DNA of 64,000 nt from a virus (IMGVR_UViG_3300027974_001530); one strand, 5' to 3'. Counted from the first letter of the stretch, positions 390-63,969 are shown. Notes: generated by a model not told the origin, from the sequence alone. Numbers and translations: made by a program.

Positions 390-1136
390 TTATTCTGCAA
401 TTATGTACTGACTTATTTCTGAAAGTATCCTATTCCCATCTTCACCGGTTATATAAAATATAAATGTAGGTGTTGTTGGTGTAGGTGTTGGTGTTGGAGT
501 ATTAGTTCCTGTTGGTGTAGGTGTTGGAGTATTAGTTCCTGTTGGTGTAGGTGTTGGAGTATTAGTTCCTGTTGGTGTAGGTGTTGGGGTATTAGTTCCT
601 GTTGGTGTAGGTGTTGGGGTATTAGTTCCTGTTGGTGTAGGTGTTGGGGTACATCCACAAGGGTTTGTACAAGTTTGTGTTGGTTTAGGTGGTTTAACTG
701 TTGGTGTTGGTGTTGGGTCACCACACCCACAAGGATTAGTACAAGTCGCACTTGGTGTAGGTGTTATTGTTGGAGTTAAACTTATTGTTGGCGTTACCGT
801 AGGTGTTGGTGTTGGTACTTTACAAGGATCCAAAGTCGTTGTTGGAGTGTTAGTAGGTGTTGGTGTTGGTGTTTGAGTTCTTGTTGGAGTAATCGTCGGT
901 GTTGGTGTTGGTGTAACTCTAGGAACATTAAGTATGTTAACACATTTACTTCCATCCACTAATATTGTGTATGTTCCATATACTTCTCTTGGTGGGTTTA
1001 AAGAAGCCGGGAAAAATATAAACGGTAGAGTTATTGGACCCAAATTAATTGTAACCAAATCGTTATCGGGTTTGAAAAGTACTGTGACACTTTCCCCAAT
1101 AAAATTAATACTTTCTATTGTAATACTTGTACTCAT
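390..1136 (-). CDS. Pro/Thr-repeat (mucin-like) putative virion protein
   Basis: 248 aa; long (TP)n tracts, [10 protein letters not shown] repeats and CTNPCGC motifs; abuts the upstream gene (TAA/ATG overlap at 1136). Confidence 0.75.
481..650. repeat. 30-bp coding tandem repeat, ~5.7 copies
   Basis: gttggtgtaggtgttgg(a/g)gtattagttcct repeated head-to-tail; encodes [10 protein letters not shown] on the minus strand. Confidence 0.95.
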
Positions 1137-3991
1137 TAACTTCCTAATTCAATTGCCAAACAGATTTCTCCATTTTCTTTTATTAACCTTGACATATCAT
1201 TAAACGAAATAAATGCATGTCCACCATTACCCCAAGATTTACCCCAACTGTTTTTTATTCTAAATTGTTTTGTTTTTGTGTCAACACCATTTATTAAGTA
1301 GGCATGACCACCAACCATCTGTCCACTAATTTTAATTAACCCAGTTTTATTAGGATAAAACATTCCATTATACCAATTAGTCCCAACAACCACAGGACCT
1401 AATTTTAAAATTGTTTCAGACAATGTTTGTACATCAAACGCCCAATAGTATGATTTTACTTTACCAATATTTTTAAGATATTTTACCGCCCCTCTAACTG
1501 ATGTTCCGTCATAGTTTTCACCATACCACTCATCTAATTTTTGTGCGTTTTTATATATATCAAAAGGTTTTATTATCGGTGGTATTCCCGATTGTTGTAT
1601 AGGACCATCTTCTAACCAATGTGACCACGAATACCCAACACATTGAGGTGTGTTTCCTTGATCTCCCCACCACCCATTGGCATCCCAATACCTTTGAGTT
1701 AAAACTTTTGGTGGTGTTGATATTTGTTGGAGTGTTCGTTGGTTGTTTTTTATAAGATAATTTAAATCTCTTTTGTCCTCAATATAAACCCTACCTAAAC
1801 TATGTGGTAAAGAATTTATTGTTGTTGTGCTTGTAACAACATTATTTATCTGATATGTTAAATCATTTGTCTTACAAAATTTAGTATCACAATCAGGACA
1901 ATCAGGATCAAATAAAATAAATTTATCTTTTAATAATTTAAAATTATGTTTGATCTCATCAGATTCTAACGGTTCAATATAAAATCTGAATTGAGATATC
2001 CCCCCATCAAAAGTTCCCCCGAAATTTTGTTCAAGTAATATGTTAGTACTTAACCCTGATAAAGTAGTACCACTTAATATATTATTAGGTAAACATTCTG
2101 GATCTTGTATGTAATTTGATGTTAACGCAGAACAAGATGAAAAAGTTAAATTTTCATGTAATCCTTGTGTTCCACCACCCCAAGAGATATTAAAAGGAAC
2201 CCCTATTTGTTTTTCTTTATCGGTAAACAAACCTCTTGGTATTACTTCTTCAAAGTCCTCTATTGTATATATTTTTTTACCGTTAACATAAATCTTTAAT
2301 CTTCCTAATCTATATTTTTTTTCATCTAACCAAGTTTCATTTAAGTTAACTAATTCTATTAATTCTCCGCTTTTATTGTTATGGGTTAAAGGAGGCCTTA
2401 TTAATTCAACACTGTTGTTTGCCAAGGATTCCAAGTATTCAAATTTAGTAATGTCAAACAAACCTCCATAAAATTTTAAATCACAGAAATCAAACCATGA
2501 ATATCTTTCCCAAGTTACATTAACTAAAAACCAATGCTCTTCATTTAAGAAATCAGGGTTAACAATTTCACAATAAGGATAAATTGGTGGTGAACAATAT
2601 TCATCAATAGTATATCCTGTAACATATGTTTTACCCGTTACACAAGTTCCCGTTGTTTCACAACCACCAGTAAACCTTAATACCTTTACACCAATCTGTG
2701 GGTTTTTTACATCACCACAAAGTTTAAACGATATGTTATTTGACATAACATCAAACAATGGATCGGTCTCACATGTGTACTCAATAGAAGTAAAACCCGT
2801 TGGTCCACAAGTTGTACACTCATCGCACGTTTCACATTTAGTACAGGTTGGTGTACATACCGGTGTTTGTGTTTCACATGATGGAGTTGGTGTTGGTGTT
2901 GGTGACGGGGTAGGTGTTGGTAAAATTACTGTTTCACAATTATGTATTTGGCATTCCCACCCACAAGTTTCACATGAACTTTCATTACAACCACAACCAC
3001 ATGTTAGTGAGATTTTTTTGTCTCCACCACAAAGTGGACATCCATAATTTAAATGTGGATCATGTTGGTTATTATAAGATCTTGGTGGGTAAACATAAAC
3101 ACATCTACTATCCGTAACTGTTCTATCACAACAAGCACATGTTGACGGACAACCACTTAATGAATTAGTAACTCTTGTATAACCAGTTAAACAATTTGGG
3201 TGTCCATCGGCATGATGGTAAAATTTATTTTCGGCTCTTGTACCAAAATAAAAAAACGTATTTTTATTTTTTGGGTACATCTCATTAAGAGTTGTTTCAG
3301 TAGGTAATGGATTGTATTCATTAACAAATCTAGGTCTTAATAACATTTCTACCGACCAACCTTTAGAAGATCTTTCAGGTAAAACCTCATAATCAAATCC
3401 AAATAGTTTGTAAAATCCTTGGTAGAAACCACCGTACAATTCATGGTACTTACCAAACTGAGGATCGTTTTTACTTACAACCTCATAAAGAGTGTCTTTT
3501 GTAATTCCTGAAAATTTATTATTACTTTGGGTGTATCCCGTTACTTGGAATAATTTAATTCTTCTATCAAAATGTAATCTGTCAAATTTTAAAAAATCAT
3601 TATATAATCCTTTTGTATAATTTAAGGTCTCCCCCGTCATTTTATCAACCAAACCATTATCTATACCTGTTAAACCTACATCACATAATGTTGATGATGA
3701 AAAACAAGTTAGATCTTCATTGTTTGGGTTATAGTAATTTTGAGAAACAAAAACATTATTAGAATTAAAATTTTTATAATTTAATATTAATCCTTGAGAT
3801 GTTAATGGATTATTAATATCAATATTAATTGGTAATTTATTACCGTAGGTTTCCGCAATAAGGTATGGAGAAAAAATAACTTCCTCGTTATAATCTCTTT
3901 CATCTGACGACAATGACATATCCATTGACTCATTAACGGTGTTTATTTTATATTTTTGAAACACATATTGATTAATATTTTGTCCCGCCAT
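1136..3991 (-). CDS. Large Cys-rich putative virion protein with a C-terminal papain-like (C1) cysteine peptidase domain
   Basis: C-terminal ~220 aa show [11 protein letters not shown] (oxyanion Q, catalytic C), GGHAY (H) and KNSWG.SWG (N); central Cys-rich and PT-linker segments; TATTTAT at 4004-4010. Confidence 0.8.
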
Positions 3992-29028: not shown

Positions 29029-31476
29029 TTATCTAATTATTCTTTTAGTTGTACCATCTTCATACACCTCAAAAATAAACCCGTTTGTTTCTGAACTTAC
29101 TTCTTGACCAAAAAGGTTAATGTATTTAACTACCTTTTTATTTGTGTGTGTATTATTAATTGATATTGGACCGTACACTTTAAAATTACCATCAAAATCA
29201 AACTGATTTAATTTATAATAAACAGACCCATTAAATCTAAAATTATCCACATATAAGTAATTAACTACTTGAGTACTATTTCCCGTTGCTTTTGTGGTTC
29301 CAACATAATCCCATTGTTCTCCATCTATACTCCTTTCAAGTAAAAAGTAATCTGAGTTATATTCCGATGCGGTTGACCACTTTAAATTGTTGTAAGATGG
29401 ATAACCATAACCTTCAAAATATAATAACTCTACAGGTAATCCAATAGGTGAATTTGCAAGGATACCAAAAGTTCCTGTGGTTCCTCCACCATATTCCCAA
29501 ACTCTAATATATATTGTTTGTCCGGCACCTAATCCTGTTAAATATAAGTAAGGCATTAAACCATTAACGCTATTATCATCATCACAAGCAACTTGAGTTA
29601 AAGAACCAATAGAACCTGTATATATTGACATACCACCATCAGTAATAACTCCCTGTATCAAATCTATCTCCACAATACCATTTGATGGGACAACAACACT
29701 AAACCAAACGTCTTCACCCGTATAACTAGCACAACTTGGTGTTGCTTCTGATGTTGATGTTGCATTTACGTTTGTGTATGTTGAATATGTTCCAGTATTA
29801 AGGGTTATTGATATTGCACCTGACGGATTATCGTTAACTGGTGGTGTTGGTGGTGCGACACAGGTTCTTGTCATTGTAAAGGTTCCTGTATTAGTTGACA
29901 AACCTGTGGTACTATAATAAGCTATATACACATAATACTGAGTACCGTTTACTGTTGTGAACGTATAAGTTTCAGTACCACCTGAAAAACCAACATCTTG
30001 GTCAGTCACTAACGTATATGTTGCACCACATATGGTTCCACTCATAATAACCATTTCGTGGTCAAATCCTGTTCCTGCAACTGAAGTAATAGTTGTATTT
30101 TGACCATCACCAACAAAACTATACCATACACCGTAAGGTGATGAATATCCTAAAGGTGCGGTTTCTGAAACAGAACCAACAGTTGTTCCCGCAAGTCCTG
30201 ATGTCCCACAAGGAAGTGATGTTGCATTTGAACAGTTATCATTTGAGGGTGCTGGTACTGGTGATGTTGAACTTGCAGATGCGTTCCAAGAACTATATAA
30301 TCCTCCACAATTACTTCTAACATATAATATATATGTGGTATTTTGAGTTAGTGATGAGGTGGAAGAAGATGTAACACCAGCACCAACACTACCACTAGCA
30401 ACTAATCCCGTTGCTCCACTTCCCCCTAAACCTGAAGTTCTAATTTCCCATTCATATCCATTTGTTGGTAATGATGGTGATGCCGCCCAAGATAAGTTGG
30501 CGGATGTTGGTGATGTGTAAGTCACCAATAATGATGAGGGGGCAGTACAAGATGGTGGAGTCCACGTATATGTTAATCCTGAAGTTGGTTTAACTGTATT
30601 TGATAGTGTAACTGTTGAACTGTTTGATGTGCCTGCGGTTGTTGATGCCCAATTTGTTGTGGTTGTTCTGTTATTAAAATCAGTGTTTGAGGTTCCTCTT
30701 AAACCTACCTGAAATGTTGTTGCGGTAGTACTTGTTGGTCCTTGTATATTATAGACCACGTTGATTGTATTTGTGGTCTCATTTAATCTTATCTGAAAGT
30801 TATATAATTCACCAAAACCACCTGTTGTGGTATATCTTTGCCATCCTGTCCATTGAACGACTAATGTCCTATTTGGTGAGGTCCCTATTGTTTGAAATCT
30901 AATACCAAATGTTGACCTACTAAATCTAAAATGAAATCCGGTACCTCCACTTGTTGCATTTGCAGAAATTGTTACAGTGGTTGCGGTTTTAGATAATACC
31001 GTAGCTCCTGCGGGAATACCTGTACCACTTACCTTATCCCCAACCGATATTAGTGATATGTCACCACCCGTAATTGTAATTACCGCACTACCAGAAGTTC
31101 TATTTGCTAATAACGACCCACGTCCTATTAAATCAGCTCCCATTGCTGATATAACATTATTTGACGTTCCTGTTGATAGTGGTAAATAACTACTAGTTGG
31201 TAATGATCCTAATGTTATAAATCCATTAGTGTTAACCGCAAATTGAGTATACGTTGTTCCATTATATATAAAATTAAAACCAATTGATTCTAACGCTGCC
31301 GAATTATTATCATCTAAAAAATTTGTATTTGACCAACTTGTAAAGTTATCATAGTTGACCCCACCAACTATTGGTGTATAGGTTCCAGTCGATGTTCCAA
31401 ATGTGTAAGAACTTACTTGTGATCTAACAAAAAAACTTGTTAGTATAACAAAAAAAATAAGTAGAGAATTTTTCAT
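29029..31476 (-). CDS. Secreted Bacteroidota-style multidomain protein (signal peptide, FN3-like and NDNC/PPC-type modules, T9SS-like C-terminus)
   Basis: Signal peptide MKNSLLIFFVILTSFFVRS|Q; FN3-like CTAPSSLLVTYTSPTSANLSW...YILYVRSNC; two 'NDN...A..I' modules; LPVELLYFEG..LKWSTASEYNSDYFLLERS..YYKLNQFDFDG module; tail YINLFGQEV...YEDGTTKRIIR. Confidence 0.8.
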   Translation of the reverse strand: MKNSLLIFFVILTSFFVRSQVSSYTFGTSTGTYTPIVGGVNYDNFTSWSNTNFLDDNNSAALESIGFNFIYNGTTYTQFAVNTNGFITLGSLPTSSYLPLSTGTSNNVISAMGADLIGRGSLLANRTSGSAVITITGGDISLISVGDKVSGTGIPAGATVLSKTATTVTISANATSGGTGFHFRFSRSTFGIRFQTIGTSPNRTLVVQWTGWQRYTTTGGFGELYNFQIRLNETTNTINVVYNIQGPTSTTATTFQVGLRGTSNTDFNNRTTTTNWASTTAGTSNSSTVTLSNTVKPTSGLTYTWTPPSCTAPSSLLVTYTSPTSANLSWAASPSLPTNGYEWEIRTSGLGGSGATGLVASGSVGAGVTSSSTSSLTQNTTYILYVRSNCGGLYSSWNASASSTSPVPAPSNDNCSNATSLPCGTSGLAGTTVGSVSETAPLGYSSPYGVWYSFVGDGQNTTITSVAGTGFDHEMVIMSGTICGATYTLVTDQDVGFSGGTETYTFTTVNGTQYYVYIAYYSTTGLSTNTGTFTMTRTCVAPPTPPVNDNPSGAISITLNTGTYSTYTNVNATSTSEATPSCASYTGEDVWFSVVVPSNGIVEIDLIQGVITDGGMSIYTGSIGSLTQVACDDDNSVNGLMPYLYLTGLGAGQTIYIRVWEYGGGTTGTFGILANSPIGLPVELLYFEGYGYPSYNNLKWSTASEYNSDYFLLERSIDGEQWDYVGTTKATGNSTQVVNYLYVDNFRFNGSVYYKLNQFDFDGNFKVYGPISINNTHTNKKVVKYINLFGQEVSSETNGFIFEVYEDGTTKRIIR

Positions 31477-47026: not shown

Positions 47027-49087
47027 ATGTTAGATTTTGTAGACGATAGTAATGATAAAAATAAAAAAAAGAGTGAGGCCGGAACACCTGTATTAGATAA
47101 TTTTAGTAAAGATCTAATAAAACTTGCCGAACAAGGTAAATTAGACCCAGTAATTGGTAGAGAAAAAGAAATCTTTAGAATTGCCCAAGTTTTATCAAGG
47201 AGGAAAAAAAATAACCCTATTATTATTGGTGAACCAGGAGCAGGTAAAACTGCAATCGTCGAGGGTCTTGCAATGATGATTTATGGTGGAGAGTGCCCAA
47301 AAAATTTGGTAGATAAAAGAATTGTGTCTTTAGACATTAACTCAATTGTTGCCGGCACAAAGTATAGAGGTCAATTTGAAGAAAGAATGAAGGTGATTAT
47401 TGAAGAACTTCAGAACACCCCTAATATTATTTTATTTATAGATGAAATTCATACTATGGTTGGTGCGGGTAATAGTTCAGGTTCTTTAGACGCATCAAAC
47501 ATATTTAAACCTGCGTTATCAAGAGGTGAAATTCAGTGTATTGGAGCAACAACCCTTGATGAATATAGAAGACATTTTGAGAAAGATGGTGCATTAGAAA
47601 GAAGATTCCAAAAGATTATTGTAGATCCATCAACCAAAGAAGAAACGTTTCAAATACTACAACAAAGTAAGGGTAAATATGAAGAACATCATAAGGTTAA
47701 TTATACCGATGAATCACTTCGGTTATGTGTTGAGTTAGCCGATAGATATATTACGGATAGAGAGTTTCCTGATAAGGCTTTTGATATTTTAGATGAGGTT
47801 GGGTCAAGAATGCAAATAGATATAAAATTACCTGAAGAAATTGAGTTATTAAAAGTTGAGGCCCAAGAAATAAAGAAAGAGAAGGCGACCGTTATTAAAA
47901 AACAAAACTACGAACAAGCAGCCGAATTAAGAGATAGAGAAAGAAACGTTTTAATTAAATTAGAAGAGGAGAAAAAGAAATTTGAGGATCATCTTAAAAA
48001 TAGTAAACGAGGTATTCCTGATGAAATCATTTATGAGGTAGTTTCAAACATGACTAAAATTCCTGTTAGTAAAATAAATGTAGATGAGAAAAATTCGTTA
48101 GTTAATCTTGAATTAACTTTAAATAAATACGTTATTGGTCAAGAAGAGGCGGTTGGAAAAATATCAAAATCTATAAGAAGAAATAGAGTTGGGATTAAAG
48201 ACCCTAATAGACCAATCGGTTCGTTTATATTTTTAGGATCAACAGGTGTTGGTAAGACGTTTTTAGCAAAAAAATTAGCAAAAGAAATATTTGGTAGTGA
48301 AGATAGTTTAATAAGAGTTGACATGTCTGAGTACCAAGAGAAACATACCATCTCAAGACTTATTGGATCCCCTCCAGGATATGTGGGACATGAAGAAGGG
48401 GGTCAATTAACAGAACAAGTTAAAAATAAACCATATTCTGTCATACTTTTTGATGAGATTGAGAAGGCAAATAAAGACATATTCGCAACCTTACTACAGA
48501 TGTTAGATGATGGACATTTAACTGATGGGTTAGGCAGAAAGATCAACTTTAAAAACTGTTTAATTATTATGACATCAAATATTGGTGTTAGAAAATTACA
48601 GGACTTTGGGAATGGTGTTGGATTTAAAACAAATAATAATAGTGAAGTTGTCCAAGAGGAGTATAAAAGAGACGTATTGAAAAAAGAATTACGCAAATTT
48701 TTTGCACCTGAATTTTTAAATAGAATTGATGATGTTGTAATATTTAATTCTTTAGTAAAAGAACATATTGATAAAATTGTAAAACTTGAAATTGATAAAC
48801 TAATTGACAGATTAACATCTATGAAATATAACGTTTCTTATGAAGGTTCTGTGACTGATTTTATATCAAAAGTTGGTTTTGATGATCAATACGGAGCAAG
48901 ACCAATTAAAAGAGCGATCCAAGATAAAATCGAAGACTTAATTTCAGAAAAGATATTAAACAATGAGGTTATAGAAGGGGGCGAATATATGTTATTTGTT
49001 AAAGGAGAAGGTGATGATCAAACAATAGAAATTGAGGATAGGTCAAAACCAGAACCAAAGAAAAAAGGAAGAAATAAAAAGGGATAA
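47027..49087 (+). CDS. clpC: ClpC/ClpA-like Hsp100 ATPase lacking the N-terminal Clp-repeat domain
   Basis: Two AAA+ modules (GEPGAGKT, FIDEIH; GSTGVGKT, LFDEIEKA), GAKYRG-type pore loop GTKYRG, short UVR-type M-domain (YEQAAELRD), ClpP-docking VGF loop; begins at TPVLDNFSKDL. Confidence 0.85.
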   Translation: MLDFVDDSNDKNKKKSEAGTPVLDNFSKDLIKLAEQGKLDPVIGREKEIFRIAQVLSRRKKNNPIIIGEPGAGKTAIVEGLAMMIYGGECPKNLVDKRIVSLDINSIVAGTKYRGQFEERMKVIIEELQNTPNIILFIDEIHTMVGAGNSSGSLDASNIFKPALSRGEIQCIGATTLDEYRRHFEKDGALERRFQKIIVDPSTKEETFQILQQSKGKYEEHHKVNYTDESLRLCVELADRYITDREFPDKAFDILDEVGSRMQIDIKLPEEIELLKVEAQEIKKEKATVIKKQNYEQAAELRDRERNVLIKLEEEKKKFEDHLKNSKRGIPDEIIYEVVSNMTKIPVSKINVDEKNSLVNLELTLNKYVIGQEEAVGKISKSIRRNRVGIKDPNRPIGSFIFLGSTGVGKTFLAKKLAKEIFGSEDSLIRVDMSEYQEKHTISRLIGSPPGYVGHEEGGQLTEQVKNKPYSVILFDEIEKANKDIFATLLQMLDDGHLTDGLGRKINFKNCLIIMTSNIGVRKLQDFGNGVGFKTNNNSEVVQEEYKRDVLKKELRKFFAPEFLNRIDDVVIFNSLVKEHIDKIVKLEIDKLIDRLTSMKYNVSYEGSVTDFISKVGFDDQYGARPIKRAIQDKIEDLISEKILNNEVIEGGEYMLFVKGEGDDQTIEIEDRSKPEPKKKGRNKKG

Positions 49088-55018: not shown

Positions 55019-56542
55019 TTAAGACCATCCTTGTTGTTTTGCAAATTCTTGCCTTTTTATTTTTGCGGAAGTCCTATCTGAAGGTCTCTCAACATTATCA
55101 ACAATCCAATCTATCCAAGTTCTTACGTCCTTCTCACTGTTAATTTGTTCTTCTTTTATTCTTTTTGACATAAACTCAACTTGTTTATTATAATCAAATA
55201 AAATTCTTAATTTTTCTTCATCTGAAGAAGTATCAACATTTACGTTATAGTTCTTCAAGAATGAAACTCCCATTCCACCACAAATATTATATTGCCATAA
55301 ACCAAAAGAACAGTATTTTTTACCATCAATGTTTATTGATCTATTTGAACTTTCCCCGTAACTTCCTGAATCCCCTTTAGCCTTAACGTTAAAAACACTT
55401 TCACCAAAAGCGTTTGCAACAACTCCTTTGGCGGCATTATCTGAAAGACCATAAGATTTTAAATCATTAAGAAGTTTTATTGGAACTACTTTATCAATTC
55501 CTCCACCTACGTAAATACTTTTATTAACACGTAAAATTTGGTTCCCTTTATCTGTTACAGTATTTGGACAAATATTATTTATTGTTTTAACTAAACTTTT
55601 AACAAATAGTTCATCTCCATAATTCATTTCACTATTAATGTAATCAAATACGTCTTTATATTTTTTCCCATCAATTTCCTTTCTTTCAACCATTTTATTT
55701 AGTTCATCAAGTTCATAACAACTACTTAATTTTTTAATTGCATCATGTATTGAAGTTTCATCGGTACCGATACCTTCTGAAGATAGTATTATTTTATTTA
55801 AGACTCCAGATACGGAATCAGTATTAACATCAACGTCTGTAATACCAAATCTTGAAGCAATACCACTTATATCCGATTCAGGTCTTTTAATATCTAAAGA
55901 ACTTAGAGCGGCTGCGGTTAATCCGGCTGCCGTACCCATTATTGTTTTAGTGTCAATAGGGGTTTCTTCACCTTTACTTGTTGTAATTGATAAATTACCT
56001 AATAAACTATTATCCACACCCTCAATATTACCGTTTACGTCAACGAAATCTTTAACATCACCAACTTTAACTGAAACGTGTGCATGATCAGGAATTCCTA
56101 ACTCACCCTTTACGATATATGCAAGTAATTGACCTTTTTTAATAGGATCCCCATCCTCAACAACAATATTTGTAATATGGGTATAAAAAACGTCAGGATT
56201 ACCACCACTACCCCTAACGGTAATACTGTCACCATAAATTCTTTTACCTCCACTAGATTTTAATCCGGGAGGGTTATCTGTAATTTTATCAACATATCCA
56301 TCGGATATTGAATAAACAGGTGTACCTTCAGGTGCCATTATATCGTAGGCGTTATTACTCCACCAATCCTTTCCTGTTGGGTCTGGATGTCTTGCGGCAT
56401 GTGAATTAGGTCCTCCTCCCCAAGTAGGATCCACTTTATCAAATATTTTAGTTGAAAATTTAGGTGCCGTAGTATCTATTGATTCATTAATTGACATTAA
56501 TGTTTTTATTCTTCTTATTTCTTCAGATAAAAAATGTTTCAT
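55019..56542 (-). CDS. Multidomain peptidoglycan hydrolase: leader, M23 peptidase, annexin-like repeat, phage-tail-lysozyme domain (start re-called at ATG 56542)
   Basis: M23: NNAYDIMAPEGTPVYSISDG, YTHI, HAHVS; annexin-like EGIGTDETSIHDAI; lysozyme: LSDNAAKGVVANAFGES, SFGLWQY, QVEFM; TATTTAT at 56558-56564. Confidence 0.8.
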   Translation of the reverse strand: MKHFLSEEIRRIKTLMSINESIDTTAPKFSTKIFDKVDPTWGGGPNSHAARHPDPTGKDWWSNNAYDIMAPEGTPVYSISDGYVDKITDNPPGLKSSGGKRIYGDSITVRGSGGNPDVFYTHITNIVVEDGDPIKKGQLLAYIVKGELGIPDHAHVSVKVGDVKDFVDVNGNIEGVDNSLLGNLSITTSKGEETPIDTKTIMGTAAGLTAAALSSLDIKRPESDISGIASRFGITDVDVNTDSVSGVLNKIILSSEGIGTDETSIHDAIKKLSSCYELDELNKMVERKEIDGKKYKDVFDYINSEMNYGDELFVKSLVKTINNICPNTVTDKGNQILRVNKSIYVGGGIDKVVPIKLLNDLKSYGLSDNAAKGVVANAFGESVFNVKAKGDSGSYGESSNRSINIDGKKYCSFGLWQYNICGGMGVSFLKNYNVNVDTSSDEEKLRILFDYNKQVEFMSKRIKEEQINSEKDVRTWIDWIVDNVERPSDRTSAKIKRQEFAKQQGWS

Positions 56543-56553
56543 ATATGATTTTA

Positions 56554-57036
56554 TCATATAAATACTTCGTCGGGTTGAAACCAACTTGGAATAACCCTGT
56601 TTTTCCAACTAACGATAAGTTTTTTTCCTTCTCGGTAATAATTTCTATATGATTCGATCACATCGTTTCCTATTTTAAATTCATCACCCATCGCTAATGG
56701 TGGGGATGTAAAATCAACATCGTGGATATTTGGTTTATTTATTAAACACCATTCTATTACATCCTGAGATTTGTGTCTTTTACCATATCGATAAGTGTAT
56801 TCTTTACATAACTCCAAACCAAGATCACATAAATAAAGATAATTTGAGAGGGACTCTCTAACCCATATTGAACATGGGTGATTTTTGTGGGATAATTTAT
56901 ATGGGGCCTCATTTCCAATTACCCAGTGAGTCCCACATAAAAGTTGTGCGGTTTCTAATATCATCTTGACAACGTGTTTATCACAATGATATTGAGCGCA
57001 TTTTTTTGTATCAAAATCTAAAAAGAAAATATTCAT
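56554..57036 (-). CDS. denV: Pyrimidine-dimer DNA glycosylase / endonuclease V-like protein
   Basis: MNIFFLD....CAQYHCDKHVVKMILETAQLL, YKLSHKNHPCSIWVR, EYTYRYGKRHK, SYRNYY; TATCTTTA promoter at 57041-57048. Confidence 0.75.
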   Translation of the reverse strand: MNIFFLDFDTKKCAQYHCDKHVVKMILETAQLLCGTHWVIGNEAPYKLSHKNHPCSIWVRESLSNYLYLCDLGLELCKEYTYRYGKRHKSQDVIEWCLINKPNIHDVDFTSPPLAMGDEFKIGNDVIESYRNYYREGKKLIVSWKNRVIPSWFQPDEVFI

Positions 57037-57072: not shown

Positions 57073-57681
57073 TTATTGTTGTAAGTGCGTCATTAAAACT
57101 CCACCTAAAGAGGTTGCATGAACCAATAAATGATTTATTGATTCAATGTCAAGTTTTGTTTTTCTTTTTGTGTAATCAAGACCTAAAGTACCTATAAACC
57201 TATCATCAATTGTTTTAATTGCAAATAAGTAACTTGATTTACATCCCGTGTCTTCGGCAATGTATTTTAATCCGTATGTTGCAATTGTTTCATCTTTGAA
57301 GTCGGACACCTCAATTACATCATTACTTAATAATTGATTTATTGATTTTGAAAATAAATTTACGGGAATATTATGAAAATTAGTTTGTACGGATTGAACT
57401 CCTGGATGTACTGTTTCGTACATTATTGAAAACTTAGCCATTGATTTACCTGTTGGGTAGAAGTTACCTCCATTGTGAAATTGAGTTATCCAAACTCTAT
57501 CGGCATTAAATTCATCTTTAATATGTTCTATTTTGTTTGTTACCAACTCCGCAACCCTCAATGTGTCTTTAACCATATCCGGTTTTTCTTTATTCTCTAA
57601 TTTCTTTTTAATATAAAGAAGTAATATGGGACCAACAACTCCTGTTATAAATGCTATTATAATTCCTACATAACTTTCCAT
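57073..57681 (-). CDS. Single-TM membrane protein with a GAF-like domain (holin-T-like architecture)
   Basis: TM residues ~5-23; then 'EFNADRVWITQFHNG...FSIMYE......GCKSSYLFAIKTIDDRFIGTLGLDY', a GAF-type strand pattern. Confidence 0.55.
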   Translation of the reverse strand: MESYVGIIIAFITGVVGPILLLYIKKKLENKEKPDMVKDTLRVAELVTNKIEHIKDEFNADRVWITQFHNGGNFYPTGKSMAKFSIMYETVHPGVQSVQTNFHNIPVNLFSKSINQLLSNDVIEVSDFKDETIATYGLKYIAEDTGCKSSYLFAIKTIDDRFIGTLGLDYTKRKTKLDIESINHLLVHATSLGGVLMTHLQQ

Positions 57682-57686
57682 ATTTA

Positions 57687-58340
57687 TTAAACTTTTTTAA
57701 CTAATGATCTTGAGATTTCAGGTGGAGTTATTTTTCCTACACTTAAAACTTTACTAATTCCGTCTTTTGTTCCCCAAGTATCTAAACTAGAACATTGAGC
57801 AATCTCTTTTGCTCCTTTATTTTTTTTCAATCCATTAACAATACAATCATATCTACCATTTGTCAATGTTTTTACGGTTGCTTCAATACCGTCCTTTTCG
57901 TTTTTATAATTTCTAACACCACTAAGACATTTACCCTCTTTTTTACTTAAACAATTCCAAAACGTAGATTCAGGCATAGATTGTGTTGTGTTAAATGGAT
58001 TGTATGAAGATTTTGCCCCTTCGGCTTGTCTCCAAGAATAAAAAAACGCCATATTTTCCTTTGTTATAGGTGCGTCTATTTTTTCTAAAACTTTTTCGTA
58101 GAATTTTATGTCTTCGTCTGAAGGATCTTCAATTTTGTAACTTTTATATTCTTTTGTTACTTCTCCTGTCTTTTCTTTTTCTTCAAAATCAACTCCAGTT
58201 AATTCTTTAAATTTTTTCTTAATATCTTTTATCGTATCTGATTTTTTTATGGTATCAAGAACATCAGAAAACCAACCTTCCTCAATAGAATTCATTTTTC
58301 TAATTCTGGTTTTTTCCGATTCTGAAATTAATTTCTTCAT
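57687..58340 (-). CDS. Lysozyme-like putative cell-wall hydrolase with N-terminal leader
   Basis: WRQAEG....YNPFNTTQ...GVRNYK...DGIEATVKTLTNGRY, a lysozyme/transglycosylase-like signature; TATTTAT at 58359-58365. Confidence 0.6.
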   Translation of the reverse strand: MKKLISESEKTRIRKMNSIEEGWFSDVLDTIKKSDTIKDIKKKFKELTGVDFEEKEKTGEVTKEYKSYKIEDPSDEDIKFYEKVLEKIDAPITKENMAFFYSWRQAEGAKSSYNPFNTTQSMPESTFWNCLSKKEGKCLSGVRNYKNEKDGIEATVKTLTNGRYDCIVNGLKKNKGAKEIAQCSSLDTWGTKDGISKVLSVGKITPPEISRSLVKKV

Positions 58341-58375
58341 ATTAATTTGATTTATATGATAAATATTACGTTAAA

Positions 58376-58404
58376 TTAAAAACCCCCAAAAAATTTGAGG
58401 GTTT
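58376..58404 (-). terminator. Probable terminator after the holin-like gene
   Basis: AAAACCCTC-aaattttt-TGGGGGTTTTT on the minus strand. Confidence 0.55.
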
Positions 58405-58422
58405 TACGTCTATCCACTAAAT

Positions 58423-58590
58423 TTATTTTTTATCGACAATAGACCAAATGGCACCTGTTAATGTCATTGCACCACCGATAATTTCGGTTACTACTGACTC
58501 ACTAGCAAGTCCTTTCATTATAAAGATACCACCAACGAATGTTAATCCGTGTCTGATAATCCCCATAATTTGTTCTTTAGATAATTTCAT
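58423..58590 (-). CDS. Small two-TM holin-like protein (55 aa); missed by the ORF track
   Basis: MKLSKEQIMGIIRHGLTFVGGIFIMKGLASESVVTEIIGGAMTLTGAIWSIVDKK: two hydrophobic helices, basic C-terminus, directly after the endolysin; resembles Pam3-gp28-type putative holins. Confidence 0.65.
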   Translation of the reverse strand: MKLSKEQIMGIIRHGLTFVGGIFIMKGLASESVVTEIIGGAMTLTGAIWSIVDKK

Positions 58591-58627
58591 AAAATTTATT
58601 TTTTTATAGTTTATTTTATTATAAATA

Positions 58628-59452
58628 TCACTTTAATAAGTTATAGTACTCTTTGAAGTGTTTTATTCTATCAGGTAATCCAATAGTTCCACCATTAACT
58701 CGTTTTGTAACTGCGGTAACTGTGACATCATCCGCCCCCTTATCACATATTGACCAAAGTTTGTTTGAGTCAAAAAAGAACGCTGCCGAAGCCAATGGAT
58801 ATTTGGTCGCAACAAGATCAGGATTTGACACACAATCCTCACCAATAAATTTTGTAAAACTCGTATAATTTCCTTTTCCTGTTAATTGTATGTAACCTCT
58901 ACCTCTAAATTTATAACCTTCTTTTGATGTCTCATCTCCGTTACTCATACGGTTAGCATATACCCTTGATGCGATCTTTTCAGGTTGTTTAGCGTATGAT
59001 TCGGCCAAGTTACCAGGAAAGTATTTACCAAACGTTCTTTTTAATCCGTCAGCAGAATAATTTAAATTTTCTGACACCGCCTTAAATCCTCCTGACTCGT
59101 GTCCACACTGTGATAAAAAGTGAGCAAGTCTAAGATTGGTTGTGATATTAAATTTCTTTGCAGTTTCAGGGATTTGGGCAATAACAACATCAGGAATATG
59201 ACCTTTTAATTTTTCAATGTTTAATGGTCCACCTGAAGGAATTACAAAATCTTCTTTAACTACCTGAGTTGTTCCGAACATTTTAGACCAAGTACCATCA
59301 CCAACAATACCATCTGAGGTTAATCCATTAGATAATTGCCATTCTTTTACCGCTTTTTCTGTTCCATGACCAAATGATCCGTCCGCAGTAAGTCCTAATT
59401 TTGTTTGGAGTTTTTTTACATCCTCTCCTTTGGATCCATTTTTTAATAACAT
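58628..59452 (-). CDS. Endolysin: PG-binding domains plus GH19 (chitinase/lysozyme) catalytic domain
   Basis: LKNGSKGEDVKKLQTKLGL.ADG.FG..TEKAVKEWQ...DGIVG..TW; RLAHFLSQCGHESGGF, FRGRGYIQLTGKGNY, VTKRVNGGTIGLPDR. Confidence 0.92.
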   Translation of the reverse strand: MLLKNGSKGEDVKKLQTKLGLTADGSFGHGTEKAVKEWQLSNGLTSDGIVGDGTWSKMFGTTQVVKEDFVIPSGGPLNIEKLKGHIPDVVIAQIPETAKKFNITTNLRLAHFLSQCGHESGGFKAVSENLNYSADGLKRTFGKYFPGNLAESYAKQPEKIASRVYANRMSNGDETSKEGYKFRGRGYIQLTGKGNYTSFTKFIGEDCVSNPDLVATKYPLASAAFFFDSNKLWSICDKGADDVTVTAVTKRVNGGTIGLPDRIKHFKEYYNLLK

Positions 59453-59464
59453 AGATTTTTTATT

Positions 59465-60139
59465 TTATTGTTTATTTTCTGTTGCGTATTTTATACCCAT
59501 AATAGTTCCCACTATTGAAAAGGCGTTTGTTAGAAGTATCCCAAATATATTAGACCAAGTAGCACTTATTACTTGAGTATCTTTACCCATTATAAGAGTA
59601 AAAACATACACTCCTGTGGTAACAATACCAACACCAATAATAATATAAAGAGCAACTTTTACTATATTGGATATTAATTCTGTTTGGTTTCTTTTTTGGA
59701 GTATATCCAAGTCGTTTAATGCGTTTGTTTTTGCCGTTTCTGACTGAATTCTAGCCTGTTCAGATTTAATCATTTCTTTTTGAAGTTCCTGTTGGATTTT
59801 TTCATTCCCCACTCTCCAATCCATCAATTCCTCGTTCTGTTTTTCTATTTGTTCTTTTTGTTCCTCAGCTTCTTTTAATGTTAACTGAAGATCTTCCATC
59901 ATTTTTTGATTTTCCACATTTAGATTTGATAACTCATTATTTTGCGTTTGAATTTTTTTTGTTATCTCCAATCTTTTACGTCTTGAATCTTTGTCTTTCT
60001 CCGAACACTTAGTTAAGTATGATTTAAATTCATCATTATCTGTTTCAAACAACTTGATAATATTTCCCTCAATCCCAATATTTTTGGAATCAAAGAGTTT
60101 AATTAAATTTTCTTCACTATTTGTATCTAACTTTATCAT
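59465..60139 (-). CDS. Coiled-coil protein with two C-terminal TM helices, in the two-component operon
   Basis: Long heptad region (~50-150), TMs ~160-182 and ~195-213; overlaps the receiver gene by 4 nt; 12 nt upstream of the endolysin. Confidence 0.8.
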   Translation of the reverse strand: MIKLDTNSEENLIKLFDSKNIGIEGNIIKLFETDNDEFKSYLTKCSEKDKDSRRKRLEITKKIQTQNNELSNLNVENQKMMEDLQLTLKEAEEQKEQIEKQNEELMDWRVGNEKIQQELQKEMIKSEQARIQSETAKTNALNDLDILQKRNQTELISNIVKVALYIIIGVGIVTTGVYVFTLIMGKDTQVISATWSNIFGILLTNAFSIVGTIMGIKYATENKQ

Positions 60140-60573
60140 TTATATACTTTAAAAGGTAATGTTCTATTTTTATACCCCTCATAATCCTTTCTGAACTCTT
60201 CTAAACGAGGTTCAATATCATCTGATTTAATAATCCAGAATTGAGCACCAGCCTGGAGCGCTTTTGCTTGTTCTTCCGGTTCGTTTGATGATGATATGAT
60301 ACCAATAACTACGTGATTACCATATTCAAAATTAACTTTTCTAATTAACTCTATACCATCAAAAGAACTACCAATTATGTTTAAGTCAACAAACACACAT
60401 TCAGGTTTATCATTATTGTCACCATCCTGGAACCATTTTTGAAATAGTTTTGCTGCCTCGTCAGAACTATTTAACGCATTTAAAGACAAACTTATGTCAA
60501 GTAACGAACAAGCGTCTTCAAATACCAAATGGAATAAATCCTCATCATCTACTAATAAAATTGAATCAATCAT
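60136..60573 (-). CDS. Single-domain response regulator (CheY-like receiver)
   Basis: ILLVDDED, phosphoacceptor VFVDLN, IISSS, AQFWIIKS; no output domain. Confidence 0.92.
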   Translation of the reverse strand: MIDSILLVDDEDLFHLVFEDACSLLDISLSLNALNSSDEAAKLFQKWFQDGDNNDKPECVFVDLNIIGSSFDGIELIRKVNFEYGNHVVIGIISSSNEPEEQAKALQAGAQFWIIKSDDIEPRLEEFRKDYEGYKNRTLPFKVYK

Positions 60574-60591
60574 TTTTTTCTTTTTTGTTTT

Positions 60592-62211
60592 TTATTTTAT
60601 TTTTATTTTTATTTTTGTTCCTATTTCATTTTTCTCACAGGTAATATTAAACCCGTGTTCTTCTAAAATAGCAACGCAAATATTTAATCCCAAACCAGTA
60701 CCAGATTCTTTTTGTCCTTCTTTTCTTGTATATGGTTTACATAGGTGGTCAAAATCTTCTTGTGTGATTCCTCTACCATTATCTTGAATGTAAACATAAT
60801 TCTCGTCTGAAGTTATTTTAACAAATTTAGAATCCGAATCATTATACTTTAAACCGTTTCTAATCAAGTTATCAACCGCAGTACAAAATAGTGCTTCGTT
60901 TACCTCAATAGTTGGTAACTCATCTATAATAACTTGACTAATATATGCAGTAGATGATAGATAATCAGATAGGATTAATTTTAAATCACATTCCGCTTTA
61001 TTTAAAACAACATCTTTTTTAACCAAATTGGTAAATTCGTAAACCCCTTTATATACTTTTTGAGAATGTTTTAAACCTTCTTTAATCATTCTAAGTGGGG
61101 ATTCTATTTTTAAATTTTTTATATCTTCAGGAGTTAATCTTCGTTCTAAAGAGCTTAATCCTCTTGGCATATATGTATTAATACCAGAGTGCATATCGTG
61201 TCTTAATATCTTTGCGGCATGCTCTAAATAGGTATTTTTCTTTTCAATCTCCATTTGTTGATTAATACTTTGGGTGATGTCAGTGGCGATTTTCATTACT
61301 CTATATGGTTTCCCATCGGTTCCTATGATGGGGTTATATGTCGCTTGGAGATAAATTAAAGATCCGTTTTTTTTCTTTCTAATGATTTCACCCATAAAGA
61401 ATTGACCACCTTTTAAAGTTTTCCAAAAGTTTGAATATTCTTCAGAGTCTTTTACCACATCTTCAACAAATATACTATGATGTTTTCCAACAAGTTCATC
61501 GTGCGAATCATAACCTAAAGTACTTAAAAATAAATCATTTGCAAATTTTATGTTACCATCTAAATCAAATTCAATAACGGCATTTGATCTGTTAATCGCA
61601 TTCATTCTATTTGATATTTCTTGTTCAGTCTTTTTTAAAGAAGTTAAGTCTTGACGAATTGACATAAACTCTAACAATTTACCGTTTTCATCAAAACTAC
61701 ATTTAATAAAAGTATCCACATAATAAAGACTTCCATCTTTTGCCCTATTGACACAAACCTCATTCCAAAGACCCTTATTCACAACAACAGTTTTATACAT
61801 ATTAGACCAAAACTCTTTTGGGTGTGTTCCAGAATTTACAATATTGTGGTCTTTACCAAGAACATCTTCTAATGAATAACCTGAGATTTCGGTAAATTTT
61901 TGATTAACGTATGTAATCTTTCCTTTTGCATCAGCTTTAGATATGATGGAAGAAGAATTTAAGAAATGTTCTAATTCTACCAATTTATCCACCGATTCTT
62001 TAGATACAGTATCTTTAGTGGAATTGATAAAGTCTTTAATTAATAACGCAGATATAGGGATGAGAGAAATAACCCCAAAAAATTCTAGCCATCTAGTTGT
62101 TTCTGTAGATTCTCGTAACCCAATAAGAACCGCAATTTTAACACACATAAATGCAATCATTAGTAAAGCGGCGATAACTAATGTTATTTTTATTCTTAAA
62201 CGATATTTCAT
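60592..62211 (-). CDS. Membrane sensor histidine kinase: 2 TM, PAS, PAS, HisKA-like, HATPase
   Basis: PAS1 ISKADAKGKITYVNQKFTEISGYS..DVLGKDHNIVNSGTHPKEFW...NRAKDGSLYYV; PAS2 AVIEFDLDGNIKFANDLFL..LGY...GKHHSIFV...ATYNPI; H-box LRHDMHS; N-box NLIRNGLKY; G1 QDNGRGI; G2 GTGLGL. Confidence 0.92.
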   Translation of the reverse strand: MKYRLRIKITLVIAALLMIAFMCVKIAVLIGLRESTETTRWLEFFGVISLIPISALLIKDFINSTKDTVSKESVDKLVELEHFLNSSSIISKADAKGKITYVNQKFTEISGYSLEDVLGKDHNIVNSGTHPKEFWSNMYKTVVVNKGLWNEVCVNRAKDGSLYYVDTFIKCSFDENGKLLEFMSIRQDLTSLKKTEQEISNRMNAINRSNAVIEFDLDGNIKFANDLFLSTLGYDSHDELVGKHHSIFVEDVVKDSEEYSNFWKTLKGGQFFMGEIIRKKKNGSLIYLQATYNPIIGTDGKPYRVMKIATDITQSINQQMEIEKKNTYLEHAAKILRHDMHSGINTYMPRGLSSLERRLTPEDIKNLKIESPLRMIKEGLKHSQKVYKGVYEFTNLVKKDVVLNKAECDLKLILSDYLSSTAYISQVIIDELPTIEVNEALFCTAVDNLIRNGLKYNDSDSKFVKITSDENYVYIQDNGRGITQEDFDHLCKPYTRKEGQKESGTGLGLNICVAILEEHGFNITCEKNEIGTKIKIKIK

Positions 62212-62215
62212 ATCA

Positions 62216-62261
62216 ATAAATATGTCCTAACTCTTTACTTTTCAAAGTGAGATATATTTAT
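62216..62261. promoter_or_regulatory. Divergent pair of TATTTAT motifs (62216-62222 minus; 62255-62261 plus)
   Basis: One motif precedes the kinase gene, the other the YkuD-like gene. Confidence 0.6.
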
Positions 62262-62278
62262 AATGAAAATTAATTATT

Positions 62279-62875
62279 ATGAGTTATACAAGAGAACAGG
62301 TTGAAACCGCAGTAAAATCCAAAGGTTATGTTTGGTTTGAAGATACATCAAACAAAAGTTACGATGTTAATATCATTGGGATCAGAAATGCCGCTACAGG
62401 ACAAAAAGTTACTAATGTTTTTGATGATTATTTAACATTATCCTATAAAGTAGACGGTCAATGGAAATTCCATATTTGGCCAGCAACTACAGATCCAGGT
62501 AAAAAAGGTGTTATGGAATACCATAATAAAGATGGTGTTGCAAGATTGGTTGAGGGTCAATATAGAGGATCTCACACAATTAGATTACATCAAGGTAAAT
62601 ACGAAGCTTTAGGTCAAGCGAAAAACGTTAAGGTTTATCGTGATGCCAATAAAGATCTAATTTATGATGAGAAAAAAATTACTGAAGGTGTTTATGGTAT
62701 TAACATTCATAAAGCAGGTGCCGATTCAACATATGTTGAGAATTGGTCTGAAGGTTGTCAAGTATTTAAAAAATCTGCGGATTTTGAGGAGTTCATGAAG
62801 ATTTGTAGAAAAGCCAAAGAAATACATGGTAACTCATTTAGTTACACATTAATTAAATCAACAGATATTAAATAA
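62279..62875 (+). CDS. L,D-transpeptidase (YkuD)-like cell-wall enzyme
   Basis: GINIHKAG...NWSEGCQVF matches the H-x(n)-S-x-G-C catalytic motif; no signal peptide. Confidence 0.6.
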   Translation: MSYTREQVETAVKSKGYVWFEDTSNKSYDVNIIGIRNAATGQKVTNVFDDYLTLSYKVDGQWKFHIWPATTDPGKKGVMEYHNKDGVARLVEGQYRGSHTIRLHQGKYEALGQAKNVKVYRDANKDLIYDEKKITEGVYGINIHKAGADSTYVENWSEGCQVFKKSADFEEFMKICRKAKEIHGNSFSYTLIKSTDIK

Positions 62876-63857: not shown

Positions 63858-63897
63858 AGGGAATTTCTGAGATCTACAAAATTTTTTTAAAAAAATG

Positions 63898-63969
63898 TAG
63901 CCCCACCTAGAATCGAACTAGGAACTAATCTTTAGAAGAGATTCGTTATATCCATTTAACTATGGGGCC
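63898..63969 (-). tRNA. tRNA-Arg(UCU), CCA not encoded
   Basis: GGCCCCA/TGGGGCT acceptor stem; GTTA/TAAC D-arm; AATCT-CT[TCT]AA-AGATT anticodon arm; CCTAG-TTCGATT-CTAGG T-arm. Confidence 0.95.

Follow-up and report, generated by a model that had tools for sequence, protein, structure and literature searches.

We analysed a run of genes in a 64,000-nucleotide stretch of viral DNA (IMGVR_UViG_3300027974_001530; this whole stretch is hereafter called the window) in which a two-component signalling system directly precedes the genes for host lysis. The window comes from an uncultured jumbo phage of lake water that is T4-like by its gene content: it encodes Gp23 (capsid), Gp20 (portal) and a large terminase of the T4 type, at a guanine plus cytosine (GC) content of about 30%. 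The assignment to jumbo phages is based on the nearest virus record, a 59-kb fragment (G001) that is rated 20% complete, and on relatives of up to 304 kb; the region of the locus falls outside the coverage of that record. Comparison with about 50 related lineages suggests, without proving, that this phage times lysis by sensing the redox or energy state of its host.

The run occupies the minus strand and consists, from its 5' end, of genes for a sensor histidine kinase (HK; 60592-62211, 539 residues), a single-domain response regulator (RR; 60136-60573, 145 residues), a protein composed of a coiled coil and two transmembrane (TM) segments (CC2TM; 59465-60139, 224 residues), an endolysin (58628-59452, 274 residues) and a holin (58423-58590, 55 residues). 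HK and RR are separated by 18 nucleotides, RR and CC2TM overlap by 4, the gap between CC2TM and the endolysin is 12 nucleotides and that between the endolysin and the holin is 37. The open reading frames and the first three spacings are those given in the original prediction, which had been made from the sequence alone. The domains that it had assigned to the kinase, the output-less receiver, the coiled-coil protein and the peptidoglycan-binding GH19 endolysin were recovered by Pfam searches and hydropathy analysis, and the PHROG assignments of the proteins of the run agree with Pfam.

HK has two N-terminal TM segments by hydropathy, with a loop of about 10 residues between them, and Pfam identifies two PAS domains and a HATPase_c domain (1.5e-16). 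An H-box-like sequence, LEHAAKILRHDMHSGINTY, which contains H338 of the putative dimerization and histidine phosphotransfer domain, sits N-terminal to the catalytic ATP-binding domain at the expected distance. Across 43 homologous kinases, the LRHDMHSG core of this box, H338 included, is invariant, as are N452, the N box DNLIRNGLKYN and the DNGRG and GTGLGL motifs. The PAS1-PAS2 tandem matches the tandem PAS of MmoS that binds flavin adenine dinucleotide (3EWK) at 7.5e-28, and PAS1 matches NifL (2GJ3) at 1.9e-13 and Aer (8DIK) at 8.5e-13. The pocket residues T18, H53, N85 and R115 of Aer correspond to T103, H132, N164 and R195 of MmoS (PMC9668731). When the flavin-pocket residues were mapped onto HK through the 3EWK alignment, three of the four positions were found to carry the expected residue in this phage, and these three, H122, N155 and R186, do not vary in any of the 42 kinases with a PAS1 domain. 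The likeness of PAS1 to the flavin redox domains of Aer and NifL, as originally proposed, is therefore confirmed, and the combination of these matches with the invariant residues makes a flavin redox sensor a well-supported guess. For PAS2 (approximately residues 205-315), Pfam gave matches to PAS_3 and PAS_9, both generic profiles, and the domain aligns with PAS-B of MmoS.

In RR, Response_reg is the only Pfam domain (33.7 bits against a cut-off of 30.2; residues 5-117 of 145), and no DNA-binding domain was found by Pfam, in agreement with the earlier description of a receiver without an output. The closest solved receiver by sequence, 3ILH, is matched at only 6.6e-6. Over 46 sequences, the mean column identity of RR is 90%, and D9, D10, D63, S94-96 and K116 are invariant. 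Thus, the catalytic residues of both the kinase and the receiver are present in this phage and invariant in its relatives, and the claim of an intact set of phosphorelay residues holds.

Three parts can be distinguished in the alignment of CC2TM homologues. The head (residues 1-75) is conserved and bears the motifs LEGNI, RRKRL and TKxxQxQN; the coiled coil varies, being shorter by 31 residues in one clade; and the two TM segments form a polar hairpin that is nearly invariant, with the consensus DTQxI..WSNxFGILLTNAFSIVGTIMGxKY. Hydropathy likewise places two TM segments at the C-terminus, and the AlphaFold model (predicted local distance difference test score, pLDDT, of 86.8) consists of a small helical head and a single helix, residues 36-184, that continues into the first TM segment (TM1) and is followed by the second (TM2). 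Pfam returned no match for this protein. A profile search among 1.8 billion representative proteins retrieved 261 clusters that include no named family or known function, and fold and feature searches led back only to the uncharacterised viral clusters of CC2TM itself.

The endolysin contains PG_binding_1 (46 bits against a cut-off of 23) and Glyco_hydro_19 (37.2 bits against 25.5) domains and matches the PHROG endolysin family phrog_181 at 3e-65. By hydropathy, it has no N-terminal TM segment and is in this respect unlike a signal-arrest-release endolysin. The holin, directly 3' of the endolysin, belongs to the Phage_holin_10 (Pam3 gp28) family (55.4 bits against a cut-off of 27; 6e-15), and its two hydrophobic stretches fall under the strict hydropathy threshold that we used. 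On the plus strand, the divergent gene at 62279-62875 (phrog_3000) encodes a candidate peptidoglycan enzyme with a YkuD-like fold. Its product has neither a YkuD match nor any other in Pfam. The top Foldseek matches of its AlphaFold model (pLDDT 82.6) are proteins of the L,D-transpeptidase fold (8QZG at 5e-4, DpaA, LdtMt2, Pgp2, Csd6 and YkuD, with template-modelling scores of 0.3-0.48), H144, S157, G159 and C160 are invariant and form an H...SxGC motif, and homologues in relatives are fused to PG_binding_1. Together, these features make the original label of a YkuD-like wall enzyme reasonable, with moderate support.

A gene-start motif, ATATTTAT (core TATTTAT), lies at 62216-62223 on the minus strand, 4 nucleotides before the ATG of HK; the same motif occurs on this strand at 58621-58628, 30 nucleotides before the holin start, and the divergent YkuD-fold gene has a copy of its own at 62254-62261. 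Within the window, 25 of the 78 copies are located in the sense orientation at most 60 nucleotides upstream of genes, a zone that comprises 3.4% of the window positions, compared to 2.6 copies expected (P ~5e-18); there are 11 antisense copies in the same zone. Given this strong enrichment, the motif before HK, which had been noticed originally, is a genuine signal, and because it also heads the genes for the major capsid protein, the prohead protease, the portal and the terminase, we consider it a candidate late promoter. The late promoter of T4 has a similar sequence, TATAAATA. In most relatives, the motif is found 4-8 nucleotides from the HK start.

Within the run, the motif precedes HK and the holin only, without a copy before RR, CC2TM or the endolysin; the copy at the holin is absent from the original account. 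A terminator scan detected no terminator-like sites on the minus strand inside the run, as had been claimed, and an intrinsic-terminator-like hairpin with a U-run closes the unit 3' of the holin stop (58374-58405, minus strand; 12-bp stem, -13 to -15 kcal/mol, z = -2.6). From the positions of the motif and the lack of an internal terminator, the genes for HK, RR, CC2TM and the endolysin therefore look like a single predicted transcript, and the holin could be transcribed from its own motif as well as by read-through. A scan for sigma-70-type promoters gave no more sites than in shuffled sequence, and its result was not used. A further element, AGTAAAGAGTT (62229-62239, minus strand), located 5' of the motif of HK, has its sole exact copy in the window at this place and recurs in 15 of the 43 related lineages, 17-29 nucleotides upstream of the HK start; it may be an operon-specific regulatory site.

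Conservation of the module and its linkage to lysis genes

More than 100 contigs in IMG/VR carry close relatives of the module, and dereplication of these loci at 95% CC2TM identity yielded 45 lineages. At each locus with sufficient flanking sequence, HK, RR and CC2TM are clustered and co-oriented, and in none of the 45 lineages are they separated. Furthermore, the RR and CC2TM genes overlap by 4 nucleotides in 32 and by 1 nucleotide in 9 of 43 lineages (41/43). By these comparative data, the three genes are an inseparable, conserved signalling module of phages, and since the trio is conserved and shares its gene-start motif with the virion genes, the notion of the operon as a phage signalling unit stands.

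A peptidoglycan hydrolase is encoded within about 2 kb of the module in approximately 32 of the 45 lineages, in at least five arrangements that involve the non-homologous enzymes GH19, GH24 and M15. The GH19 endolysin is downstream on the same strand in 22 lineages, within 10-60 nucleotides in 19 of them; the gap to CC2TM, which contains no motif, is 12 nucleotides here and 10-14 nucleotides in 17 relatives. In six lineages, GH19 is divergent and upstream of HK, and in one or two it is upstream on the same strand, at a greater distance. Two lineages have a small TM protein, a GH24 lysozyme, a PG_binding-YkuD fusion and a Phage_holin_4_1 protein directly upstream on the same strand, and one has a convergent small TM protein and an M15 peptidase downstream. 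The only neighbour of this kind in three lineages is a small TM protein, encoded convergently, of the TM80/93 family described below, and nine have no lysis-like gene within the flanks. A complete 304-kb genome contains a single CC2TM gene, which ends 38 nucleotides before the only strong PG_binding_1 gene. The lineages with a 174-180-residue protein with two TM segments 3' of CC2TM (the L059/L068 type) were kept among those without a lysis neighbour, the PHROG matches of this protein being at E ~0.02-0.05.

According to the original prediction, the idea of a lysis timer would fail if the three genes were usually unlinked from lysis genes in other genomes. With a hydrolase nearby in about 32 of 45 lineages, the reverse was observed, and linkage is common without being obligatory. 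The stronger statement that the sensor operon is wired directly into the lysis genes is weakened: it is valid for only some 19-22 of the 45 lineages and does not extend to the six lineages with a divergent layout, the one with a convergent layout or the nine with no lysis gene nearby.

The HK-RR-CC2TM trio is also present on three more distant contigs (L136, L137 and L138) with GC contents of 42%, 48% and 66%, in which the receiver is still 65-77% identical. These contigs were binned in metagenome-assembled genomes of unrelated phyla and are probably mis-binned phage DNA; their differing GC content combined with the conserved receiver implies that the module spans phages of very different hosts. 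Altogether, the contigs that bear the module range from 29% to 66% GC.

Across the homologous kinases, the N-terminal sensor part is variable (474 to 717 residues), with GAF-containing forms among them, and in many lineages the interval between HK and RR holds one or two inserted genes. In about 12 or more lineages, this interval contains a second kinase (for example, L007:9587-10978, L052:9389-11403 and L058:2825-4785) that comprises a signal peptide or TM segment, an extracytoplasmic region of about 190 residues and another TM segment. It has the RHDMHSGINTY H-box of the first kinase, and the cores of the two kinases share 65% identity; a secreted protein of 204-245 residues is often encoded 5' of it. 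Because this second kinase brings an extracytoplasmic domain and is inserted before RR, cytoplasmic and periplasmic sensors appear to both feed one receiver in those lineages. Two separate observations on the surroundings of the module are that one lineage has a GIY-YIG-type gene (L069:10161-10883; homing-endonuclease-like N-terminus, by eye) between the second kinase and the receiver, and that a DnaK/Hsp70 gene adjoins the module in several relatives (L010, L059, L063 and L068).

Fusion proteins and the probable order of the pathway

Among the homologues of CC2TM, there are natural fusions of two kinds. In the first kind, a sensor domain is joined directly to the coil and hairpin: PAS domains similar to PAS2 of the kinase in P0055 and P0057, and a GAF domain in P0018. 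In the second kind (P0124, P0141 and P0145), the head and coil of CC2TM are joined to a classical HisKA/HATPase_c core, and the gene of this head-coil-kinase protein occupies the CC2TM slot, overlapping a lone receiver 3' of a PAS-PAS kinase. The position of the receiver directly 5' of these fusions, along with the overlaps in 41 of 43 lineages, supports a link between receiver and membrane protein, the step through which the original prediction had routed the signal. A complex prediction for RR with residues 1-155 of CC2TM gave a median score of 0.20, compared to a mark of 0.32, and carries no weight either way. The protein P0082 (348 residues) has a CC2TM-type head and coil fused to a multi-pass domain that resembles an ABC permease (FecCD/BtuC-like) by eye, and is either a real fusion or an assembly chimera.

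In our reading, which is based on these PAS/GAF-hairpin and head-kinase fusions, the hairpin would be the output module, the head the module that takes the signal of the receiver, and a sensor domain could replace kinase, receiver and head together. The pathway then very probably runs from sensor to kinase, receiver, head, coil and hairpin, in this order.

All six loci that encode sensor-coil-hairpin proteins adjoin lysis genes. The neighbours are GH19 at L131; TM80-like, GH19-like and glucosaminidase genes at L132; TM93-like and GH19 genes at L139; a GH24-like gene at L140; TM93-like, PG_binding-YkuD fusion and holin genes at L141; and GH19 and holin_4_1 genes at L142. The TM80/93 family, as we call it, consists of membrane proteins of 72-93 residues (22 distinct sequences; for example, L036:10776-11018, L041:10741-11022, L016:6052-6270, L132:6955-7191 and L141:6358-6639) that have no Pfam or PHROG match and adjoin M15, GH24, GH19 or PG_binding-YkuD genes. 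It probably represents an undescribed holin family.

Lysis timing and alternative explanations

Taken together, these findings suggest that HK, RR and CC2TM constitute a late-expressed phage signalling pathway with a membrane hairpin as its output that adjusts the timing of host permeabilisation and lysis, an interpretation to which we assign a probability of roughly one half. Under this model, PAS1 would read the redox or respiratory state of the host, with the extracytoplasmic domain of the second kinase adding a periplasmic input in some relatives; the kinase would phosphorylate D63 of the receiver; and the phosphorylated receiver would bind the head of CC2TM, from which the signal would run along the coiled coil directly into TM1 and alter the assembly state of the hairpin. 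Because the hairpin is nearly invariant while the adjoining holins and endolysins differ, it would act on something constant, such as the membrane potential or an oligomer of the hairpin itself, perhaps as a gated leak that triggers any holin present; binding to one specific holin is less likely. Holins fire early upon membrane depolarisation. For this reason, we conjecture that a signal-gated leak could serve as a general trigger, for which it would make sense to take input from an Aer-like energy sensor. More tentatively still, and with the odds somewhat against so broad a statement, such a phosphorelay may be widespread in uncultured jumbo phages and gate permeabilisation post-translationally by the redox or energy state of the host, with the one-component fusions doing the same without phosphorylation.

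Several observations weigh against this interpretation. The module has no lysis gene nearby in 9 of the 45 lineages, the distant trios L136-L138 also have no lysis neighbours, and in three of the records without such a neighbour, which were searched over their full length, candidate endolysins are encoded 26, 75 and 17.5 kb away. The gene layout is compatible with co-transcription with the endolysin in only about half of the lineages, and common ancestry, not selection, could account for much of the adjacency. At the level of the proteins, Pfam did not report HisKA for HK at E<0.01, and the fourth position of the flavin pocket, T103 in MmoS, is A93 in this phage; 29 relatives have Ala there and 13 have Thr. 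A pore or leak function of the hairpin is only a guess, because the hairpin has no detectable homology to the local holin families or to any named family. Two lake metatranscriptomes contain short contigs, mostly of relatives, including an exact 343-nucleotide contig within the endolysin gene and one of about 93% identity that spans the HK/RR junction; given that these contigs are short and that contaminating DNA is possible, a single transcript is not demonstrable from them, and we do not use them as support.

Some of these observations would be explained if the pathway were a real sensory one whose membrane output served a purpose other than lysis, for example in superinfection exclusion, in controlling the respiration or transport of the host, or in remodelling the membrane late in infection, and if its proximity to lysis genes reflected a shared late accessory region and common ancestry. 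The lineages and distant trios without lysis neighbours, where the module is flanked by DnaK, tRNA clusters or nucleotide-metabolism genes, the endolysins located 17-75 kb off in three records and the lack of a relationship between the hairpin and known holins are all compatible with such an output. However, the link to lysis recurs with non-homologous endolysins and holins in varied orientations, the one-component sensor-hairpin fusions adjoin lysis genes in six cases out of six, and in the phage analysed here no start motif intervenes in the 12 nucleotides between CC2TM and the endolysin, so we consider an output unconnected to lysis to be unlikely. Disturbance of host two-component signalling by the kinase and receiver, through a phosphate sink or cross-phosphorylation, with CC2TM as an unrelated neighbour, appears highly improbable. 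Single-domain receivers can act as phosphate sinks, and the 90% conservation of the receiver is unusually high, which would fit such a role, but the receiver is always coupled by start and stop codons to the head-domain protein, whatever the C-terminal output of the latter, and the sensor of the one-component fusions stands in for the whole set of kinase, receiver and head. Moreover, a host-specific target fits poorly with a module found on contigs of 29%-66% GC, that is, in very different hosts.

The original prediction had cast CC2TM as a candidate antiholin or holin regulator, in which case it would bind the Pam3 gp28-type holin of its own phage, with the receiver switching the binding. The location of CC2TM inside the lysis cassette of this phage, and the potential of a membrane hairpin to pair with a holin of two TM segments, are in line with this proposal. 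However, the hairpin (WSNxFGILLTNAFSIVGTIMGxKY) remains nearly constant across adjoining holin candidates of at least three unrelated families (Phage_holin_10, Phage_holin_4_1 and TM80/93) or none, and this conservation, in contigs whose GC content of 29%-66% implies different hosts, disfavours a partner-specific antiholin. Many antiholins are close relatives of their own holins, as in lambda (S107/S105) and phage 21 (S21 71/68), whereas the comparison of the hairpin with Pam3-type, TM80/93, holin_4_1 and p100 proteins as possible paralogues gave HHalign probabilities below 1.5% throughout. Neither homology to a holin nor specific pairing with one is evident from the sequences of CC2TM. We therefore regard a dedicated antiholin as rather improbable and favour the model in which a sensory pathway adjusts lysis timing through a general membrane effect of the hairpin.

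Related systems, significance and additional genes

Lysis timing is known to be controlled by the intrinsic clocks of holins and by a small number of antiholins, among them T4 RI, a sensor of superinfection. The functionally nearest systems are T4 lysis inhibition, in which RI and RIII act on the holin T, and the LytSR-Cid/Lrg system of Staphylococcus and Bacillus, to neither of which the module belongs. The first similarly involves a T4-type phage, a signal that delays lysis or sets its time and post-translational action at the inner membrane. It differs in that a small periplasmic sensor of superinfection binds the holin directly, without a kinase, receiver or phosphorylation, and in that the holin of the present phage is of the Pam3 gp28 family; we saw no homologue of RI or T, and none was specifically sought. 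In LytSR, a two-component system is likewise linked to small membrane proteins that govern murein hydrolases and death, and LytS is thought to sense the energy state of the membrane. However, this is a cellular system whose regulator, LytR, acts in transcription through a DNA-binding LytTR domain, whereas the phage receiver has no DNA-binding domain in Pfam, and hence is not a regulator of the LytTR type, and is linked to the membrane protein by gene coupling and fusion.

Individual components have closer counterparts. HK shares with Aer, MmoS and NifL the sequence of PAS1 and the H, N and R residues of the pocket, and with Aer also the membrane hairpin anchor without a periplasmic domain, but the outputs of those proteins are chemotaxis (Aer), regulation of soluble methane monooxygenase (MmoS) and inhibition of NifA (NifL), and in the phage kinase the equivalent of T103 is Ala and the flavin is only predicted. 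RR resembles the receiver-only proteins CheY (acting on FliM), DivK, Spo0F and CpdR, with an intact acidic pocket, S/T and K, and coupling to a partner that does not bind DNA; the difference is that its partner belongs to a new phage family of head, coil and two-TM hairpin that has no named relatives. Pinholins such as S21 68 of phage 21 are, like the hairpin, small phage proteins with two TM segments; by assembling, they depolarise the membrane and determine when lysis occurs. They offer a model for the hairpin, to which no sequence relationship was found, and CC2TM differs from them in its cytoplasmic portion, head plus coil, of about 150 residues.

A histidine kinase has been described within the genome of a phage in the case of phiCDHM1, a phage of Clostridioides difficile that carries agrB, agrD and agrC from the host quorum-sensing locus, with no response regulator among the agr genes listed there (PMC3901668). 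AgrC is not encoded in a lysis cassette there, whereas here kinase, receiver and effector form one conserved viral module. A survey of jumbo phages discusses only a divergent receiver, never alongside histidine kinases (PMC7824862). Searches of GenBank phage records yielded no match to RR or CC2TM and only generic PAS and HATPase matches for HK, and the module is not known from any cultured phage. In agreement with the original prediction, which knew of no characterised example, a literature search that left most subscription journals outside its coverage turned up no phage two-component system tied to lysis. The natural PAS/GAF-coil-hairpin and head-kinase fusions are new here.

For a lytic phage, the timing of lysis is the chief life-history decision. 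If the proposed model is correct, the module would embody a new regulatory principle, a viral two-component pathway that senses the redox or energy state of the host and has a membrane effector as its direct target, and a new class of signal-gated lysis trigger for which there is no characterised viral precedent. The hairpin could then be a compact, signal-gated membrane switch, and the natural fusions are ready-made constructs for testing it. Given that the module is abundant in lake viromes, it may also bear on the relationship between burst timing and host physiology in nature.

Several other genes of the window were also noted. On the minus strand, 57073-57681 encodes a 202-residue protein with one N-terminal TM segment (phrog_38864), which is found 3' of the holin region in many relatives and could be a spanin-like lysis component; the 217-residue gene at 57687-58340 has no family match. 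Another minus-strand gene, 55019-56608, encodes a 529-residue protein with Peptidase_M23 and Phage_lysozyme2 (tail lysozyme) domains that probably serves as a wall hydrolase of the virion and not as the endolysin. Two minus-strand genes encode a 951-residue protein with a C-terminal, papain-like Peptidase_C1 domain (1136-3991) and an 815-residue protein with a galactose-binding domain of the type associated with the type IX secretion system, slightly below the Pfam cut-off (29029-31476). Along with the resemblance of the endolysin to genes of Cellulophaga and Bacteroides phages, these two proteins hint at a host among Bacteroidota. Finally, the window encodes a ClpB-like double AAA+ chaperone (47027-49087, plus strand) and a tRNA-Arg(TCT) (63897-63969, minus strand).

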